Source of the DNA: a virus
Taxonomy: Duplodnaviria > Heunggongvirae > Uroviricota > Caudoviricetes
DNA length: 5,380 nt
Strand: one strand, 5' to 3'
IMG/VR virus record: IMGVR_UViG_2667527898_000018
A program made the translations under genes and the position numbers. Positions 106 through 5,106 of the stretch are shown here, in pieces. The notes beneath the pieces are model-generated. The model saw nothing but the letters and a program-made list of their open reading frames with translations. It ran no database searches and had not been told where the DNA came from. Every line of letters starts with the position of its first letter. The first letter of the stretch is position 1.

Positions 106-339
106 TTATGCAGCCGATGCTCTACGCGATACGAACACTAGGTTTTCCTTTTTCACAGGTTTATAACCCGTGAAATTACGAGTAGCTTCTTCGATTGCAT
201 TCGCTTTATCAGGGGAAGCTCTTCGAAATCCATATGCAATCTGGTCAAGATAGCCAACTGAAGTTTTCGCTAATGCGGCGAGTCGCTTCCATTCCTCGCT
301 AGAAGCCTCTTTTCGCCAGCGTAGTAGTTCATTACTCAT
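106..339 (-). CDS. cro: Cro/YdaS-like small HTH DNA-binding protein (77 aa), in the cro position
   Basis: 77-aa ORF divergent from the cI-like repressor across a 113-bp operator region. RBS GGAGG (complement of 345-349) sits 5 nt before the ATG. The product has an HTH-like segment (LAALAKTSVGYLDQIAYGF) followed by RRASPDKANAIEEAT, typical of Cro/YdaS-type regulators. Call rests on position plus family pattern. Confidence 0.7.
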   Translation of the reverse strand: MSNELLRWRKEASSEEWKRLAALAKTSVGYLDQIAYGFRRASPDKANAIEEATRNFTGYKPVKKENLVFVSRRASAA

Positions 340-452: not shown

Positions 453-1157
453 ATGGAAAACAAAGATATTCGCAAATCGAATCTGGCGTTTTTGCTAGAT
501 GAGCATAAAAAAATCGCGGGTAACACTAATGCAAGCTTTGCCGATAAGCTTGGGGTTAGCCCTTCTCAACTCACGCAAGTCTCCGGTGAAAAAAGCACTC
601 GAAACATAGGGGATAAACTAGCAAGAAAATTTGAAGCCGCGCTTGGGTTACCTAATGGGTGGCTTGATTTGGTACATGATGTAACACCAATTGCATCATT
701 CTCAGATTCTTTAACTTTTGTCGGTCAGGTAAGAAAAGGGTTAGTGCGCGTGGTTGGTGAGGCAATTCTTGGTGTTGATGGTGCCATCGAGATGACCGAA
801 GAGCGCGATGGGTGGCTCAAAATTTATAGCGATGATCCAGATGCCTTTGGTCTTCGTGTGAAAGGAGACAGCATGTGGCCCAGAATAAAATCAGGAGAAT
901 ATGTACTCATTGAGCCTAACACCAAAGTATTCCCGGGTGATGAGGTGTTTGTCAGAACCGTTGAAGGACACAACATGATTAAGGTTCTTGGCTATGACAG
1001 AGATGGAGAATACCAATTTACAAGCATTAACCAGGATCACAGGCCTATAACGTTGCCTTATCATCAAGTAGCAAAGGTGGAGTATGTAGCTGGTATTCTG
1101 AAGCAATCTCGCCATCTGGATGACATCGAGGCAAGGGAGTGGCTGAAAAGTTCGTGA
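453..1157 (+). CDS. cI: Phage CI/LexA-type repressor with C-terminal S24 peptidase (autocleavage) domain, 234 aa
   Basis: N-terminal HTH (NASFADKLGVSPSQLTQVSG); C-terminal S24 signature with catalytic Ser in GDSMWP and a downstream Lys (NMIKVLG). Divergent from the cro-like gene across an operator-rich spacer. Confidence 0.9.
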   Translation: MENKDIRKSNLAFLLDEHKKIAGNTNASFADKLGVSPSQLTQVSGEKSTRNIGDKLARKFEAALGLPNGWLDLVHDVTPIASFSDSLTFVGQVRKGLVRVVGEAILGVDGAIEMTEERDGWLKIYSDDPDAFGLRVKGDSMWPRIKSGEYVLIEPNTKVFPGDEVFVRTVEGHNMIKVLGYDRDGEYQFTSINQDHRPITLPYHQVAKVEYVAGILKQSRHLDDIEAREWLKSS

Positions 1158-1293: not shown

Positions 1294-1581
1294 ATGAAGG
1301 TCTTAAACGTAGAGAAGCTTCACAGTTTTAGCCAGAAGCACAATCAGGCCAAGGGGGCTTTAGACTCTTGGTATGATGAAGTGATAAGAGAAAACTGGAA
1401 AACGACTCAAGACATACGGAATAGATTTAATTCTGCCGACTTCCTTCCTAACAACAGGGTAATTTTTAATATAAAAGGCAATAACTATCGGCTCGTTGTC
1501 CAAGTTGTTTACCAGGCAGGAATGGTCATAGTTGAAAGAGTTGGAACTCATGCAGAGTACGACAAGTGGAGGCTTAAATGA
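1294..1581 (+). CDS. higB: HigB-family type II toxin (RelE/ParE superfamily mRNA interferase), 95 aa
   Basis: C-terminal region FNIKGNNYRLVVQVVYQAGMVIVERVGTHAEYDK matches the recalled HigB pattern (E. coli HigB: FNVGGNELRVV...REVMTHKEYD). Toxin-first gene order is typical of higBA. Stop overlaps the next start in ATGA (1578-1581). Confidence 0.85.
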   Translation: MKVLNVEKLHSFSQKHNQAKGALDSWYDEVIRENWKTTQDIRNRFNSADFLPNNRVIFNIKGNNYRLVVQVVYQAGMVIVERVGTHAEYDKWRLK

Positions 1582-2234
1582 ATCGAACTAGCTGGCGCAT
1601 CATTAAAAATAGTGAAGAGCATGCTGCAGCTATGGAAAGGCTCATTGAACTTGCGTCTAGTGATTTACAACCTGGAACTGAAGATTTTGATGAGTTTGAA
1701 CTACTAGGCTTGCTTATCGAGCACTATGAGTCACGCGAGTTCCCTATGGACAAGCCAGATCCCATAGAAGCAATCAAGTTCCGTATGGATCAACAAGGCC
1801 TCTCTTATGCCGATATGAAACAATACATTGGCTCAGCATCTAAAGTATCTGAGGTCTTAAATCGTAAGCGTCCATTAAGTCTTTCAATGATCCGTAGACT
1901 ACATGACGGACTTGGAATTCCTGCAGATATCTTAATTCAAGATATGAGCGCAATTGAATGGAGCCTAGTTGACGCAGAGGAAGAAGAAACAGCCATGACT
2001 AGCGTCATTGCTCGGTGTGAGTCAGCCGTCACATCACCTTCTGCTTATTTCGCTGAAAAGGCTACAGAATCTTACTTTTCAAAAATGTTGTTCAGCGCAG
2101 TAAGGGGTAACGGCAAATGCAAAGAAAAACGGAATGTTTTTTCTTTGATAAGTAACTTGTCATCAAGTTTCACAGCGGCTAGCAACCTGAATGACGAAAT
2201 GACTTCTGACGGAAATTACTTATTATTACCATGA
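1578..2234 (+). CDS. higA: HigA-family HTH antitoxin with ~96-aa C-terminal extension (candidate chaperone-addiction segment), 218 aa
   Basis: Residues ~67-122 (KFRMDQQGLSYADMKQYIGSASKVSEVLNRKRPLSLSMIRRLHDGLGIPADILIQ) match the HigA HTH as recalled from E. coli HigA (…MDQYGLTLSDLPEIGSKSMVSRVLSGKRKLTLEHAKKLATRFGISPALFID, which ends there). This ORF continues ~96 residues further. Start overlaps the higB stop (ATGA) and its stop overlaps the next start (ATGA, 2231-2234). Confidence 0.85.
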   Translation: MNRTSWRIIKNSEEHAAAMERLIELASSDLQPGTEDFDEFELLGLLIEHYESREFPMDKPDPIEAIKFRMDQQGLSYADMKQYIGSASKVSEVLNRKRPLSLSMIRRLHDGLGIPADILIQDMSAIEWSLVDAEEEETAMTSVIARCESAVTSPSAYFAEKATESYFSKMLFSAVRGNGKCKEKRNVFSLISNLSSSFTAASNLNDEMTSDGNYLLLP

Positions 2235-2635
2235 AAATTGAACTCATTAGCAAAAAAGTTGAACGCTTGGTTATGACACGGCTAGAAGGCGATTCAACAG
2301 CAAAAAAATCCATAAAAACAACCGTTAATCTAAATAATGAACTTTACACTAATGTGAAGGATTCAAAGCTATTTAGAGTGAGATATTTTGCCTCCGTAAC
2401 TATTGAAGGCAGGCTTGAGATGGACATCACATACGACTTTGACTTCCGGTCAGAAGATGATTTTTCTCATGAAATGGCAAAATCATATGAGGTAAGGTCC
2501 ATTGCTCCCAATATGGCATATCCCTATATAAAAACATATGCCGAGCAAATTATCCTCATGTCAAACCTTGGTAGGTTCACTCTGCCTTATTTTGATTTCT
2601 TGGCCAATCCCATGGAAACGAACAGTAATAAGTGA
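2231..2635 (+). CDS. SecB-like chaperone (candidate TAC chaperone), 134 aa
   Basis: C-terminal region SIAPNMAYPYIKTYAEQIILMSNLGRFTLPYFDF aligns with the recalled E. coli SecB segment [33 protein letters not shown] (PN..PY, (R/K), L.P, (N/D)F). Size is close to SecB (155 aa). Translationally coupled to the extended higA. Confidence 0.7.
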   Translation: MKIELISKKVERLVMTRLEGDSTAKKSIKTTVNLNNELYTNVKDSKLFRVRYFASVTIEGRLEMDITYDFDFRSEDDFSHEMAKSYEVRSIAPNMAYPYIKTYAEQIILMSNLGRFTLPYFDFLANPMETNSNK

Positions 2636-2772: not shown

Positions 2773-2893
2773 CTTTATTTATCCTGTCGAATTCCTACAA
2801 CAAAATAAAACACCATAAGAATCAATACGATATTTGAAAACCAAGAGAATTTATCATTTTGCTATTGCCATTAATTTATCATTCCGATAAAGT
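2773..2893 (+). promoter_or_regulatory. OL/PL-like operator-promoter region for the early-left operon
   Basis: ATTTATC core at 2777-2783, 2849-2855 and 2874-2880. The 15-mer AATTTATCATTTTGC (2848-2862) is 14/15 identical to the OR copy at 400-414. Palindrome TTTATC-ATTCC-GATAAA at 2875-2891. Candidate PL: -35 TTGCCA (2865-2870), 17-bp spacer, -10 TAAAGT (2888-2893), the same -10 hexamer and spacing as the candidate cro promoter. Confidence 0.5.
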
Positions 2894-2961: not shown

Positions 2962-2976
2962 GCGCTGACAAAGCGC
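2962..2976 (+). promoter_or_regulatory. nutL boxB RNA hairpin (P22-type)
   Basis: GCGCTGACAAAGCGC is a perfect 5-bp stem with a GACAA pentaloop, matching the P22 boxB sequence as I recall it (GCGCUGACAAAGCGC). It lies in the ~240-nt leader between the candidate PL and the N-like gene. No convincing boxA upstream. Confidence 0.7.
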
Positions 2977-3141: not shown

Positions 3142-3525
3142 ATGACACGCAGAACTCAGTTCAAAGGCAATTCACGTTCTCGTCGTCGTGAGCGTTTAAA
3201 GGTAAAGGCATTAGCTAACGGCGTACTGGCCCGCGAAGAAGCAATAAGTTCAGAAGTATTACACCGCCCTACTCTAAGCAGAGCGCAGATTCAGGCTAAA
3301 GGTACTCACGAAACGCCTGAGCGCATAGAAGACGCTAAGCCAGTTAAGTTCATGGCACAGGACGTGATCTGGCAGCAGAAAGAATACAGACGCAATCTGG
3401 AGCGAGCGACCATTGTGTACGCGAATGAGTTTGGACATAAGCAACCAGAAACTGGTGTATGTCTTCCAAACGTAGCCATTTACGCTGCAGGCTACCGGAA
3501 ATCAAAACAACTGACAGCAAGATGA
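3142..3525 (+). CDS. N: N-family transcription antitermination protein (P22 gene 24-like), 127 aa
   Basis: N-terminal arginine-rich motif GNSRSRRRERLKVKA resembles the P22 N motif GNAKTRRHERRRKLAIER. C-terminus …NVAIYAAGYRKSKQLTAR resembles the recalled P22 N C-terminus (…VALYAAGHRKSKQITAR). Strong RBS AGGAGG at 3131-3136; first gene after OL/PL and the boxB hairpin. Confidence 0.8.
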   Translation: MTRRTQFKGNSRSRRRERLKVKALANGVLAREEAISSEVLHRPTLSRAQIQAKGTHETPERIEDAKPVKFMAQDVIWQQKEYRRNLERATIVYANEFGHKQPETGVCLPNVAIYAAGYRKSKQLTAR

Positions 3526-3586
3526 CTTGTGTTGGTCGCCAGAAAATGAGATTAGGCAGCAAACCACTTATTTGAGAGGAATTAAT

Positions 3587-4210
3587 ATGTCATCAATCCG
3601 CTTAACTACGAGAATGAAAGAGGAAATCGCTCGTAACGCTTTAATTAAGTCTGGGGTTTTCACTGAACTTGAAGAAGTAACAAAGTTAAAGAACCAGCTT
3701 GCACTTGACGCCAGAGTTATTGCGTTTGGCGGTAAAAAGAAAACTGAGGAAGTGGATCAGTTATCATCCAAGTTGGTAGCTATAAGTGAAGAACTTGAAA
3801 AGATGGGATGTTCATTTTACTCATACGATGTTAGTTCTACTTCAATTTATCTGACTGTATCTGGCAGAAGGGTTGGATGGCATTCATATGGGAAAGACGG
3901 CAACGGCAAAGATATATTGCTCCCTACTCCGACCAAAGATAAATGCATGTTTGACGCAGAGCACGAAATAACAAAAAGGTTTGATGAAATCTGCGCATTG
4001 CAACAAAAACTTGAAGCCAAGAAAAAGGATATCGAATCAAATGTATGGGCTGCTTTAAACTCAGTCACAACAGTTAAGCGACTTATTGAAGTTTGGCCTG
4101 AAAGCAAAGAATTGCTACCAAAAGAAGCAGATAAAGCAAGTACAGCACTTCCTGCTTTACGGGTAAAAGATTTGAATAAAATGATTGGACTTCCTTCCGA
4201 GGCCGCATAG
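3587..4210 (+). CDS. Hypothetical protein, 207 aa (early-left operon accessory gene)
   Basis: ORF track gives 3527-4210, but the ATG at 3587 has an RBS GAGAGGA (3574-3580) with ~6-nt spacing, so 3587 is the likelier start. Hydrophilic, Lys/Glu-rich, no family recognised. Its stop codon TAG (4208-4210) sits in the loop of a terminator hairpin. Confidence 0.6.
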   Translation: MSSIRLTTRMKEEIARNALIKSGVFTELEEVTKLKNQLALDARVIAFGGKKKTEEVDQLSSKLVAISEELEKMGCSFYSYDVSSTSIYLTVSGRRVGWHSYGKDGNGKDILLPTPTKDKCMFDAEHEITKRFDEICALQQKLEAKKKDIESNVWAALNSVTTVKRLIEVWPESKELLPKEADKASTALPALRVKDLNKMIGLPSEAA

Positions 4211-4226
4211 TCGGCCTTTATTTTTG
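4199..4226 (+). terminator. Rho-independent terminator overlapping the stop codon of the 207-aa gene
   Basis: Stem AGGCCG (4200-4205) / CGGCCT (4212-4217), loop CATAGT containing the TAG stop, followed by TTATTTTTG (4218-4226). Confidence 0.6.
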
Positions 4227-4254
4227 CCATAAACAACAGAATAAACACTGCACT

Positions 4255-4282
4255 GTGTATTCATTCCAACGAGTGAATACAC
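4255..4282. repeat. Perfect 9-bp inverted repeat GTGTATTCA-N10-TGAATACAC
   Basis: GTGTATTCA (4255-4263) and TGAATACAC (4274-4282) are exact reverse complements separated by 10 nt, in the intergenic gap between two terminator-like hairpins. Function unknown. Confidence 0.5.
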
Positions 4283-4344
4283 GGAGCAATGTCGCTCGTA
4301 ACTAAACAGGAGCCGACTTGTTCTGATTATTGGAAATCTTCTTT

Positions 4345-4371
4345 GCCCTCCAGTGTGAGGGCGATTTTTTA
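4345..4371 (+). terminator. Rho-independent terminator-like hairpin upstream of the 122-aa gene
   Basis: Stem GCCCTC (4345-4350) / GAGGGC (4357-4362), loop CAGTGT, followed by GATTTTTTAT (4363-4372). Confidence 0.65.
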
Positions 4372-4390
4372 TCTATGAGGATATGAACAG

Positions 4391-4759
4391 ATGTCAAACA
4401 TCAAAAAATACATCATTGATTACGACTGGAAAGCATCAATAGAAATTGAAATCGACCATGACGTAATGACAGAGGAAAAACTTCACCAGATTAATAATTT
4501 CTGGTCAGACTCTGAATACCGACTCAATAAACACGGCGCTGTATTAAATGCTGTATTAATCATGCTGGCGCAACATGCTCTGCTTATAGCAATTTCGCAA
4601 GACTTAAATGCATATGGTGTTGTTTGTGAGTTCGACTGGGATGATGGAAATGGTCAGGAAGGATGGCCTCCAATGGATGGTAGTGAAGGAATAAGAATTA
4701 CCGATATCGATACATCAGGAATATTTGATTCAGATGATATGACTATCAAAGCCGCCTGA
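4391..4759 (+). CDS. Hypothetical acidic protein, 122 aa
   Basis: Clean ORF with RBS-like GAGGA (4377-4381) upstream. C-terminal half is strongly acidic (CEFDWDDGNGQEGWPPMDGSEGIRITDIDTSGIFDSDDMTIKAA). No family recognised with confidence. A weak hairpin AAAGCCGC/GCGGCTTT (4748-4769) spans its stop codon. Confidence 0.6.
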   Translation: MSNIKKYIIDYDWKASIEIEIDHDVMTEEKLHQINNFWSDSEYRLNKHGAVLNAVLIMLAQHALLIAISQDLNAYGVVCEFDWDDGNGQEGWPPMDGSEGIRITDIDTSGIFDSDDMTIKAA

Positions 4760-4834
4760 GCGCGGCTTTACCGCATACCAATAATGCTTCACGAGAGGCA
4801 TTTTCGTTATGCAATCAAATATAAGGAGTTACCC

Positions 4835-4969
4835 ATGATGCACTTTCAGCTCGCGGGTAGCGGCGTCATGTCCGCTTTCTACCCGCACGAATCTGAATTA
4901 TCACGCCGAGTTAAACAATTAATCAGAGCAGCAAAGAAACAACTGGAGGCGTTATGCGCAATGAAATAG
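4835..4969 (+). CDS. cIII: CIII-like small protein (candidate FtsH inhibitor), 44 aa
   Basis: RBS AAGGAG (4823-4828) 6 nt before the ATG at 4835; the longer track ORF from 4784 has no RBS. MMHFQLAGSGVMSAFYPHESELSRRVKQLIRAAKKQL resembles recalled lambda CIII MQYAIAGWPVAGCPSESLLERITRKLRDGWKRL (M-x-aromatic-x-I/L-A-G, then P-x-E-S-x-L-x-R in an amphipathic helix). Confidence 0.6.
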   Translation: MMHFQLAGSGVMSAFYPHESELSRRVKQLIRAAKKQLEALCAMK

Positions 4970-5106
4970 CCATTAATCACCAGATGCTTCGTGCTGCACA
5001 GAACAAAGCAGTAATAGCCCGATTTATTGGTGATTCAAAAATGTGGCTTGAAGCAAATAAAGCGATGAAATCAGCTATCAACCTTCCGTGGTATCGCAGG
5101 AAATGA
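4954..5106 (+). CDS. kil: Kil-like small protein (candidate host cell-division inhibitor), 50 aa; absent from the ORF track
   Basis: My translation from the ATG at 4954 is MRNEIAINHQMLRAAQNKAVIARFIGDSKMWLEANKAMKSAINLPWYRRK. RBS GGAGG at 4945-4949. It overlaps the 3' end of the cIII-like gene by 16 nt in another frame, as cIII and kil overlap in lambda. IARFIGDSKMWLEA resembles the recalled lambda Kil segment IATFIGDEKMFREA. Confidence 0.5.
   Translation: MRNEIAINHQMLRAAQNKAVIARFIGDSKMWLEANKAMKSAINLPWYRRK

Follow-up and report, generated by a model that had tools for sequence, protein, structure and literature searches.

In the lambdoid phages, the gene considered here has been deposited as gp33 of HK542 (AFH20414 / HK542c102; the same gene is found in HK244, mEp235, PhiR12 and Stx1a-converting phages), where it is annotated only as 'hypothetical protein'. 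We analyzed a 5,380-base stretch of phage DNA (IMG/VR record IMGVR_UViG_2667527898_000018, called the window throughout, with positions counted from its first base). It represents, in the orientation opposite to that of the lambda map, the immunity and early-left part of a lambdoid prophage of E. coli. Between the antiterminator gene N and cIII it carries a 207-codon gene of the Nmad5 family that is ~98% identical in DNA to HK542 gp33 over positions 3527-4260, as are the copies of mEp235, PhiR12, SH2026Stx1 and a series of Stx1a-converting phages. Like gp33, the window gene directly follows N and has the same terminator, whereas the downstream genes and the upstream N allele differ. The Dhillonvirus Nmad5 protein (SM_S22 CDS6) shares the N- and C-terminal motifs of the window protein, but it is longer, has a mid-protein insertion and is ~33% identical over the C-terminal half only; unlike the window gene, its gene lies on the opposite strand among the head genes of a virulent siphovirus. 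In the Yuavirus/M6-like Pseudomonas proteins (MP1412_15, SN1_019), the C-terminal module is ~42% identical over residues 121-207 and the gene lies upstream of a family-A DNA polymerase (PolA), but the phages are virulent and these genomes carry a thymidine-hypermodification cluster absent from the window. The lambda ral, sieB and ea genes share the slot, the transcription from PL and the optional, mosaic character of the window gene, but have no sequence or family relation to its product. Lambda ral and sieB lie beyond tL1, whereas the window gene precedes the first terminator. Tentatively, we read the lambdoid Nmad5 protein as a non-catalytic adaptor, made immediate-early together with N, that may act on DNA replication or nucleotide metabolism through a host target.

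The preliminary description of this sequence recognized no family for the protein, a view that did not hold. Judged by profile matches, the 207-residue protein is a full-length and already catalogued member of PF18757 (Nmad5, "nucleotide modification associated domain 5") and of PHROG 1965. The Pfam match (E 1.3e-71, 241.4 bits against a cutoff of 27) aligns residues 4-203 with positions 1-206 of the 206-position profile, the PHROG match (E 4.3e-84) aligns residues 3-207 with positions 2-208 of 208, and near-identical proteins go under the NCBI/RefSeq name "Nmad5 family putative nucleotide modification protein". Nmad5 was the only relevant Pfam family; SieB and GP17 gave no Pfam match, and neither an NCBIfam model nor a PADLOC match was found for the protein. 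A weak Pfam match to YfjL_C (E 0.0035) fell below the cutoff and was disregarded. With 2,298 representatives at 50% identity (E <= 1e-3), the family is large, and it is also uniform: nearly all of the 150 best representatives and 92 profile matches are full-length, single-domain proteins of ~190-230 residues, the few shorter ones resemble fragments, and a Rosetta-stone search of the same set gave no domain fusions. The family was reportedly defined by Iyer, Zhang, Burroughs and Aravind in 2013 by comparative genomics. The association with nucleotide- or base-modification genes that gave rise to its name is absent here, where the neighbors are N, DUF2528, cIII and kil. Membership stands, because that association is a contextual feature rather than a sequence criterion, but the "nucleotide modification" label is unsupported for the window gene and probably for most of the family as well. 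The literature searched contained no biochemical data on any Nmad5 member. The preliminary description had set its view of an accessory gene against confident homology to a protein of replication or recombination whose function is known; no such homology was found, since no Nmad5 member has a demonstrated function.

A mechanical list of open reading frames (ORFs) gave a TTG-started frame of 227 residues (3527-4210) in which the ATG at 3587 begins the 207-residue form. A ribosome site, GAGAGGA (3574-3580), lies 6 nt before this ATG, the homologues all begin at an equivalent MSS/MT..RLT and the Pfam profile aligns from residue 4 of the shorter form. Because the profile and every homologue begin at the ATG 3587 methionine, omission of the 20 leading codons, as proposed in the preliminary description, was correct. 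The 81 copies examined were all intact, and their 64 distinct alleles gave a mean ratio of nonsynonymous to synonymous substitution rates (dN/dS) of 0.30; the gene is thus real, intact and under purifying selection. A 133-residue ORF on the minus strand (3847-4248) overlaps the gene and is given in GenBank EF120458 as HK542c101, hypothetical protein. It was rejected as a gene, since stop codons interrupt it in 7 of 61 alleles whereas the sense ORF is intact in all 64, and its annotation is probably spurious.

A comparison of the window and 81 related loci (IMG/VR and HK542) located the edges of the homology block that contains the gene. On the left, the homology block begins at 3523, exactly at the N stop codon, in 45 loci, at 3525-3534 in two, and at 3552-3567, just before the ribosome site, in 20. 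On the right, it ends at 4240 in 10 loci, at 4255-4258 in another 10 and most commonly at 4370-4372 (45 of 81 blocks), just past a second terminator. The gene travels as a mosaic cassette made up of its leader, the gene itself, the terminator that overlies the stop codon, the structured spacer and the second terminator, and this cassette is inserted directly after the stop codon of differing N alleles in lambdoid phages: in HK542 it follows a lambda-type N, in the window an N of 127 residues. The spacer (4211-4390) folds strongly (-55.1 kcal/mol, z = -4.3, equaled by no shuffle). It may act as a recombination 'boundary sequence', or be a site of processing or a small RNA; Rfam gave only sub-threshold chance matches on the window and none for the spacer.

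The cassette is also sporadic. Carriers make up 211 of 5,426 complete E. coli genomes (3.9%), and ~90% of the window is present in three complete E. coli chromosomes at 98.6-98.7% identity. Among sister prophages that share the flanks, coverage of the window is only 78%, in five pieces, and a superinfection exclusion protein is annotated; ~48 records of Stx2a-converting phages match codons 34-207 only. In one of the latter, Stx2_6804 (LC616047.1, 238-2025), an IS3-family element (orfA of 108 residues, orfB of 296) lies just upstream of the truncated Nmad5 gene. Because an insertion sequence interrupts it, the gene is dispensable for Stx2_6804. These observations agree with the preliminary description, which placed a candidate accessory gene of 207 residues in the variable region between N and cIII and suggested exclusion, anti-defense or host takeover as its possible role.

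Of the features expected of a moron, its own terminators and sharp mosaic boundaries are present and its own promoter is absent: the gene begins 61 nt after N and no sigma-70-like site was found in the leader (3527-3586), so the cassette is not a classical moron. This bears on the possibility that the gene is expressed in the lysogen as a superinfection-exclusion or defense gene benefiting the host, as might be suggested by a cassette with its own terminators in a slot where SieB-type genes occur and by a PD-Lambda-2-like defense cassette nearby in the same prophage. We consider such a role extremely unlikely, given that the leader lacks a promoter-like site, that the PL operon is shut off by repressor, that the family is common in strictly virulent phages (N4-like, Yuavirus, Dhillonvirus) and that PADLOC does not match the protein.

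As the preliminary description stated, a terminator-like hairpin overlaps the end of the gene. A terminator scan of the plus strand gave a hairpin at 4199-4218 with a 7-bp stem (five G-C pairs), a 6-nt loop and the tail TATTTTTGCC; the TAG stop codon (4208-4210) sits within the loop. The RNA fold has an energy of -13 kcal/mol (z = -2.0 against shuffles). By itself the hairpin is statistically uncompelling, because the whole window has eight terminator-like sites against the 4.7 +/- 2.1 expected by chance. Among 80 related loci, the stem variants were single mismatches or one two-sided change giving a T-T mismatch, and the stem was not conserved above the surrounding DNA (96-99% identical). Indirect support comes from the shared homology blocks, which often end just past this hairpin (4240) or the second terminator (4370-4372). 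We regard the hairpin and its T-run (4199-4228) as a candidate tL1 equivalent. From PL to 4199 no convincing terminator was found, the sole candidate being a weak 5-bp hairpin inside N. Because nothing convincing intervenes between PL/nutL and 4199-4228, the Nmad5 gene should belong to the same immediate-early PL transcript as the N gene directly upstream, and from this anatomy its product should be made before N-dependent read-through. If that is so, Nmad5 would provide an immediate-early function absent from lambda itself.

An AlphaFold2 model of the protein, made with a 23-sequence alignment, had a mean predicted local distance difference test (pLDDT) score of 85.8 and a predicted template modeling (pTM) score of 0.71, with low confidence at residues 184-191 and 204-207. 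Three N-terminal helices (8-72) are followed by a small beta element (86-100, short strands reaching to ~122), a long helix (127-158) and, at the C terminus, short helices (163-199). No fold relative of the model was found in the PDB. The family motifs are an N-terminal R-L-T..I..N-A..K.G, a central G-G and G-x-R, and the C-terminal W-P-E-x-x-E-L-x-P and L-N-x-x-I-G-L-P; the motif residues checked are all present in the window protein (R5, L6, I14, A18, G23, R43, G48 and G93, and in the C-terminal part L166, W170, P171, E172, E175, L176, P178, L188, P189, L196, N197, G201 and L202). Among polar residues, only R5, R43, T162, E172, E175 and N197 reached 80% conservation across 45 sequences of 22-41% identity. 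The remaining conserved positions are hydrophobic, Gly or Pro and lie mostly in the C-terminal stretch, where the conserved set comprises L166, W170-P171-E172, E175-L176, P178, L188-P189, L196-N197 and G201-L202. With just six conserved polar residues within a mostly hydrophobic, Gly and Pro set, a binding module is likelier than an active site.

For the genomic neighborhoods of distant relatives, we examined 78 loci whose Nmad5 homologues share 27-49% identity with the window protein; a scan of genome contigs with a divergent alignment returned 10 loci, all from Enterobacterales. In 34 of the 78, the full gene order is a DUF2800 PD-(D/E)XK nuclease, an Enc34/T7-gp2.5-type protein that binds single-stranded DNA (SSB), Nmad5 and PolA, at times with a small reverse gene between Nmad5 and PolA, and eight more have part of this order. 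The duf2800-gp2.5-polA module was already known (PMC8093625); in these loci, Nmad5 is inserted into it before polA. The neighbors of 300, 433 and 182 residues had been guessed from size to be modification genes of the IbrA/IbrB-like 3'-phosphoadenosine 5'-phosphosulfate (PAPS)-reductase/ParB type, but Pfam gave the DUF2800 nuclease, the Enc34/gp2.5-type SSB and PolA. In locus L114 (5164-11435), L086 and ~40 other Enterobacterales loci, a protein of ~300 residues with no assigned function precedes the DUF2800 nuclease, SSB, Nmad5 and PolA. This PolA-type group comprises prophages of Xenorhabdus, Providencia, Limnobaculum and Izhakiella, together with IMG/VR contigs of 35-60 kb. The reverse-strand gene often found there between Nmad5 and PolA is variable (89-254 residues), and one that was tested had no Pfam match; in Yuaviruses, the genes lying between Nmad5 and PolA are a deoxyuridine (dU) hydroxymethylase and small ORFs.

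This arrangement raises the possibility that Nmad5 inhibits RecBCD or another host exonuclease in the manner of Gam, as the third part of an exonuclease, annealase/SSB and inhibitor set. Its place after the DUF2800 exonuclease and the gp2.5-type SSB/annealase recalls exo-bet-gam logic (module: PMC8093625), and it is a small, helical, early protein with a homologue that was reportedly toxic on cloning (PMC11846954). We nevertheless judge this very improbable: lambdoid carriers such as HK542 already encode Erf and Abc2, which would make such an inhibitor redundant in them, and the protein neither is acidic nor matches Gam by fold. HK542 Abc2 is, by its name, presumably a homologue of P22 Abc2, which we take to be a RecBCD modifier.

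Elsewhere the neighborhoods vary. In a Serratia prophage, Nmad5 is the first forward-strand gene after the repressor; in the Acinetobacter phage Scuro its ORF overlaps the start codon of PolA; the N4-like Salmonella phage SP-058 has it after ThyX, within the replication module; and in the Vibrio phage PvVp04 it precedes a replication-initiator gene. Vibrio phage D267 and Escherichia phage Pondi have it among arrays of small early genes. In three metagenomic lineages, Nmad5 and a DEDD 3'-5' exonuclease (Rv2179c-like or RNase_T) have a 4-nt ORF overlap, with PolA within 1-5 kb. Siting with replication and nucleotide-metabolism genes in both virulent and temperate phages is not predicted by a lambdoid-specific accessory reading. 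The phage hosts listed for the homologues are all Proteobacteria, to whose phages the family appears confined.

Modification genes do accompany Nmad5 in a minority of genomes (Yuavirus and the pair of loci L179/L180), and from these a role in nucleotide or DNA base modification might be proposed, as enzyme, specificity subunit or pathway scaffold. In Yuavirus MP1412, Nmad5 lies inside the thymidine-hypermodification cluster, adjoining the dU hydroxymethylase, and the genome note on SN1 counts it as part of that cassette. The L179/L180 loci (MH622939.1 and a metagenomic twin, 7001-11800) have Nmad5 one gene upstream of an adenylosuccinate-synthetase-family gene, in a set that also contains dGTP/dATP pyrophosphohydrolase-family genes and an HD phosphohydrolase; Nmad5 and a DEDD exonuclease are directly upstream of the set and downstream of PolA. 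The set is an apparent PurZ/MazZ/DatZ-like 2-aminoadenine (Z-base) cluster. In other phages Nmad5 adjoins ThyX, a deoxynucleotide monophosphate kinase or a NUDIX protein. Against this, the window (neighbors N, DUF2528, cIII and kil) and the PolA-prophage and other lambdoid loci checked contain no modification gene, and only a single MT-A70 appears among the top Pfam families of the early-region neighbors. The paper that established the M6 thymidine pathway assigned its steps to gp51-gp54 and never mentions Nmad5. The protein has neither a catalytic-looking constellation of conserved residues nor a fold relative, and adjacency discriminates poorly because small phages cluster nucleotide-metabolism and replication genes anyway. 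A modification role therefore seems improbable.

We return to the reading that we prefer, an early adaptor. In the protein, an N-terminal bundle of three helices would be followed by a small beta element, a long helix and the conserved C-terminal module (K/R164-165, WPE..EL.P, LPA..V..LN..IGLP), and this module would bind a conserved proteobacterial component of replication or nucleotide metabolism, or DNA itself. Early in infection the bound component would be redirected to the benefit of the phage, a role that may be helpful but dispensable. The name 'nucleotide modification' records where the family was first seen rather than a shown activity. Action on DNA replication or nucleotide metabolism is suggested because PolA, SSB, exonuclease and ThyX neighborhoods recur, and a non-catalytic binding role because of the pattern of residue conservation. 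A host rather than a phage target is suggested in the lambdoid phages by the lack of phage partners there, the apparent confinement of the family to phages of Proteobacteria, the dispensability of the gene and the reported toxicity.

Several points weigh against an adaptor of this kind. We found no experiment on the window protein or its lambdoid homologues and identified no binding partner. Lambdoid phages lack the PolA, gp2.5 and DEDD exonuclease partners, so that the argument must jump to a host partner. After the loci were dereplicated at 70% identity, only 4 of 19 clusters had the replication-module arrangement, and heterogeneous early regions made up the other 15, with neighbors that include Ead/Ea22, SieB, gp17 and helix-turn-helix (HTH) repressors, as well as lambda P, DinI, AAA_24, DUF669 and DUF3799 proteins. 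Sparse polar conservation is compatible with catalysis, and the near-neutral protein (isoelectric point 8.3, no charged domain) shows no sign of either DNA binding or DNA mimicry. Finally, the immediate-early timing rests on the candidate terminator at 4199-4228, in which no compensatory stem changes were found across the 80 related loci.

The sole phenotype associated with the family is escape from the Tmn defense. Dhillonvirus escape mapped to a K296E change in nmad5 (numbered K216E in a shorter annotation), Tmn sensitivity returned when the mutation was reverted, deletion of nmad5 left the phage viable and gave no escape, and the wild-type gene could not be cloned and was apparently toxic (PMC11846954). 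In a family-profile alignment, K296 aligns with R165 of the window protein, the latter of the two conserved basic residues that stand four residues before the W-P-E motif; on this alignment, the escape site coincides with a conserved residue of the C-terminal module. Since M81 of SM_S22 Nmad5 opens with MRLTKDIKNQILANIL, the N-terminal motif of the family, the annotated 334-residue protein probably begins 80 codons too early, which would explain why the same residue is counted as K296 in one phage and as K216 in another. The annotated SM_S22 nmad5 (PP627283.1, 4296-5300) overlaps the head-scaffold gene on the opposite strand.

The main rival is a dedicated counter-defense or defense-evasion factor (against Tmn-like nucleoside triphosphatases (NTPases), restriction or nucleases, in the manner of lambda Ral or T7 Ocr), one which overlaps with an adaptor function and which we hold to be unlikely while taking it seriously. 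The gene is the first after N and ahead of the first terminator, is optional and mobile, and occupies a variable slot in which same-flank sister prophages annotate a superinfection exclusion protein; the K-to-E change falls at a conserved residue (R165 here), and in D267 and Pondi its neighbors are arrays of small early genes. However, deletion in Dhillonvirus neither sensitized nor rescued the phage with respect to Tmn, which leaves the wild-type protein without a demonstrated role as inhibitor or as sole trigger. With 2,298 clusters at 50% identity the family is very broad, its length and motifs are constant, and its fixed replication-module position is unusual for fast-evolving anti-defense genes. 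Not being acidic, the protein is no DNA mimic.

A more specific proposal concerns the C-terminal peptide N-x-[L/M]-I-G-L-P, which is invariant yet poorly ordered in the AlphaFold2 model. It resembles what we take to be the sliding-clamp-binding peptide of Pol IV, QLVLGL. Nmad5 might be misnamed, being an adaptor widespread in proteobacterial phages that docks on a host replisome hub through this peptide and couples phage polymerase, exonuclease and SSB modules to the host or, in lambdoid phages, where it would be an immediate-early product alongside N, blocks the host machinery; we regard this as a long shot. If true, changes beside the WPE motif would alter what membrane-NTPase defenses such as Tmn perceive.

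The gene as such is already known, near-identical copies having been deposited and named. New here are the sharply bounded cassette ahead of the first PL terminator, the apparent placement of the Tmn-escape site on a conserved C-terminal residue and the lack of support for the label. We offer these contextual additions as hypotheses for experiments rather than as discoveries. Their importance lies with the family, whose 2,298 clusters span, among others, lambdoid, N4-like, YuA-like and Dhillonvirus phages, which has no solved fold and whose name implies an enzymology for which we found no support. HK542 and mEp235 are genetically tractable and have the gene in the best-understood phage operon, and are therefore convenient for study of both Nmad5 function and Tmn escape.

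Table 1 Features of the 5,380-base window
Feature	Position	Strand	Remarks
cro-like gene	106-339	-	
cI/LexA-type repressor gene	453-1157		
Three co-directional genes	1294-2635	+	Set closed by a terminator at 2644-2663
PL-like promoter	2865-2893		
Hairpin GCGCTGACAAAGCGC	2962-2976		
Antiterminator N gene	3142-3525	+	127 residues; Pfam N_peptide E 1.2e-14; phrog_271 E 6e-38
Leader between the N stop codon and the Nmad5 gene	3527-3586	+	Ribosome site; left edge of the mobile cassette
Nmad5-family gene	3587-4210	+	207 residues; PF18757 / phrog_1965
Most conserved part of the family (codons 164-207)	4076-4207	+	Includes the basic pair K164-R165; tail (184-207) modeled with low confidence
Intrinsic-terminator-like hairpin and T-run	4199-4228	+	Stem GAGGCCG/CGGCCTT, loop CATAGT; candidate tL1 equivalent
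Perfect 14-bp hairpin	4253-4284	+	Inside the spacer 4211-4390
Second terminator-like hairpin (4343-4364) and T-run	4343-4372	+	Terminator scan
DUF2528 gene	4391-4759		
cIII gene	4784-4969	+	Pfam cIII E 5e-30
kil gene	4954-5106	+	16-nt overlap with the end of cIII

The remaining features of the window are collected in Table 1. The hairpin between the PL-like promoter and N presumably corresponds to a P22-type boxB. The three co-directional genes that precede PL occupy the slot equivalent to rexAB, between cI and PL, and match the PADLOC models PD-Lambda-2_A (HigB-like, E 2e-42), PD-Lambda-2_B (E 4e-50) and PD-T4-9_C (E 3e-11). The PD-Lambda-2_B match covers only profile positions 3-125 of 402. 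On these matches, the set is probably a prophage-borne anti-phage defense cassette with a shortened or variant B component. Downstream, the cIII ORF as listed (61 residues) has ~17 surplus N-terminal codons, with the Pfam cIII profile beginning at residue 19, and the MMH.. methionines are probably the true cIII start.

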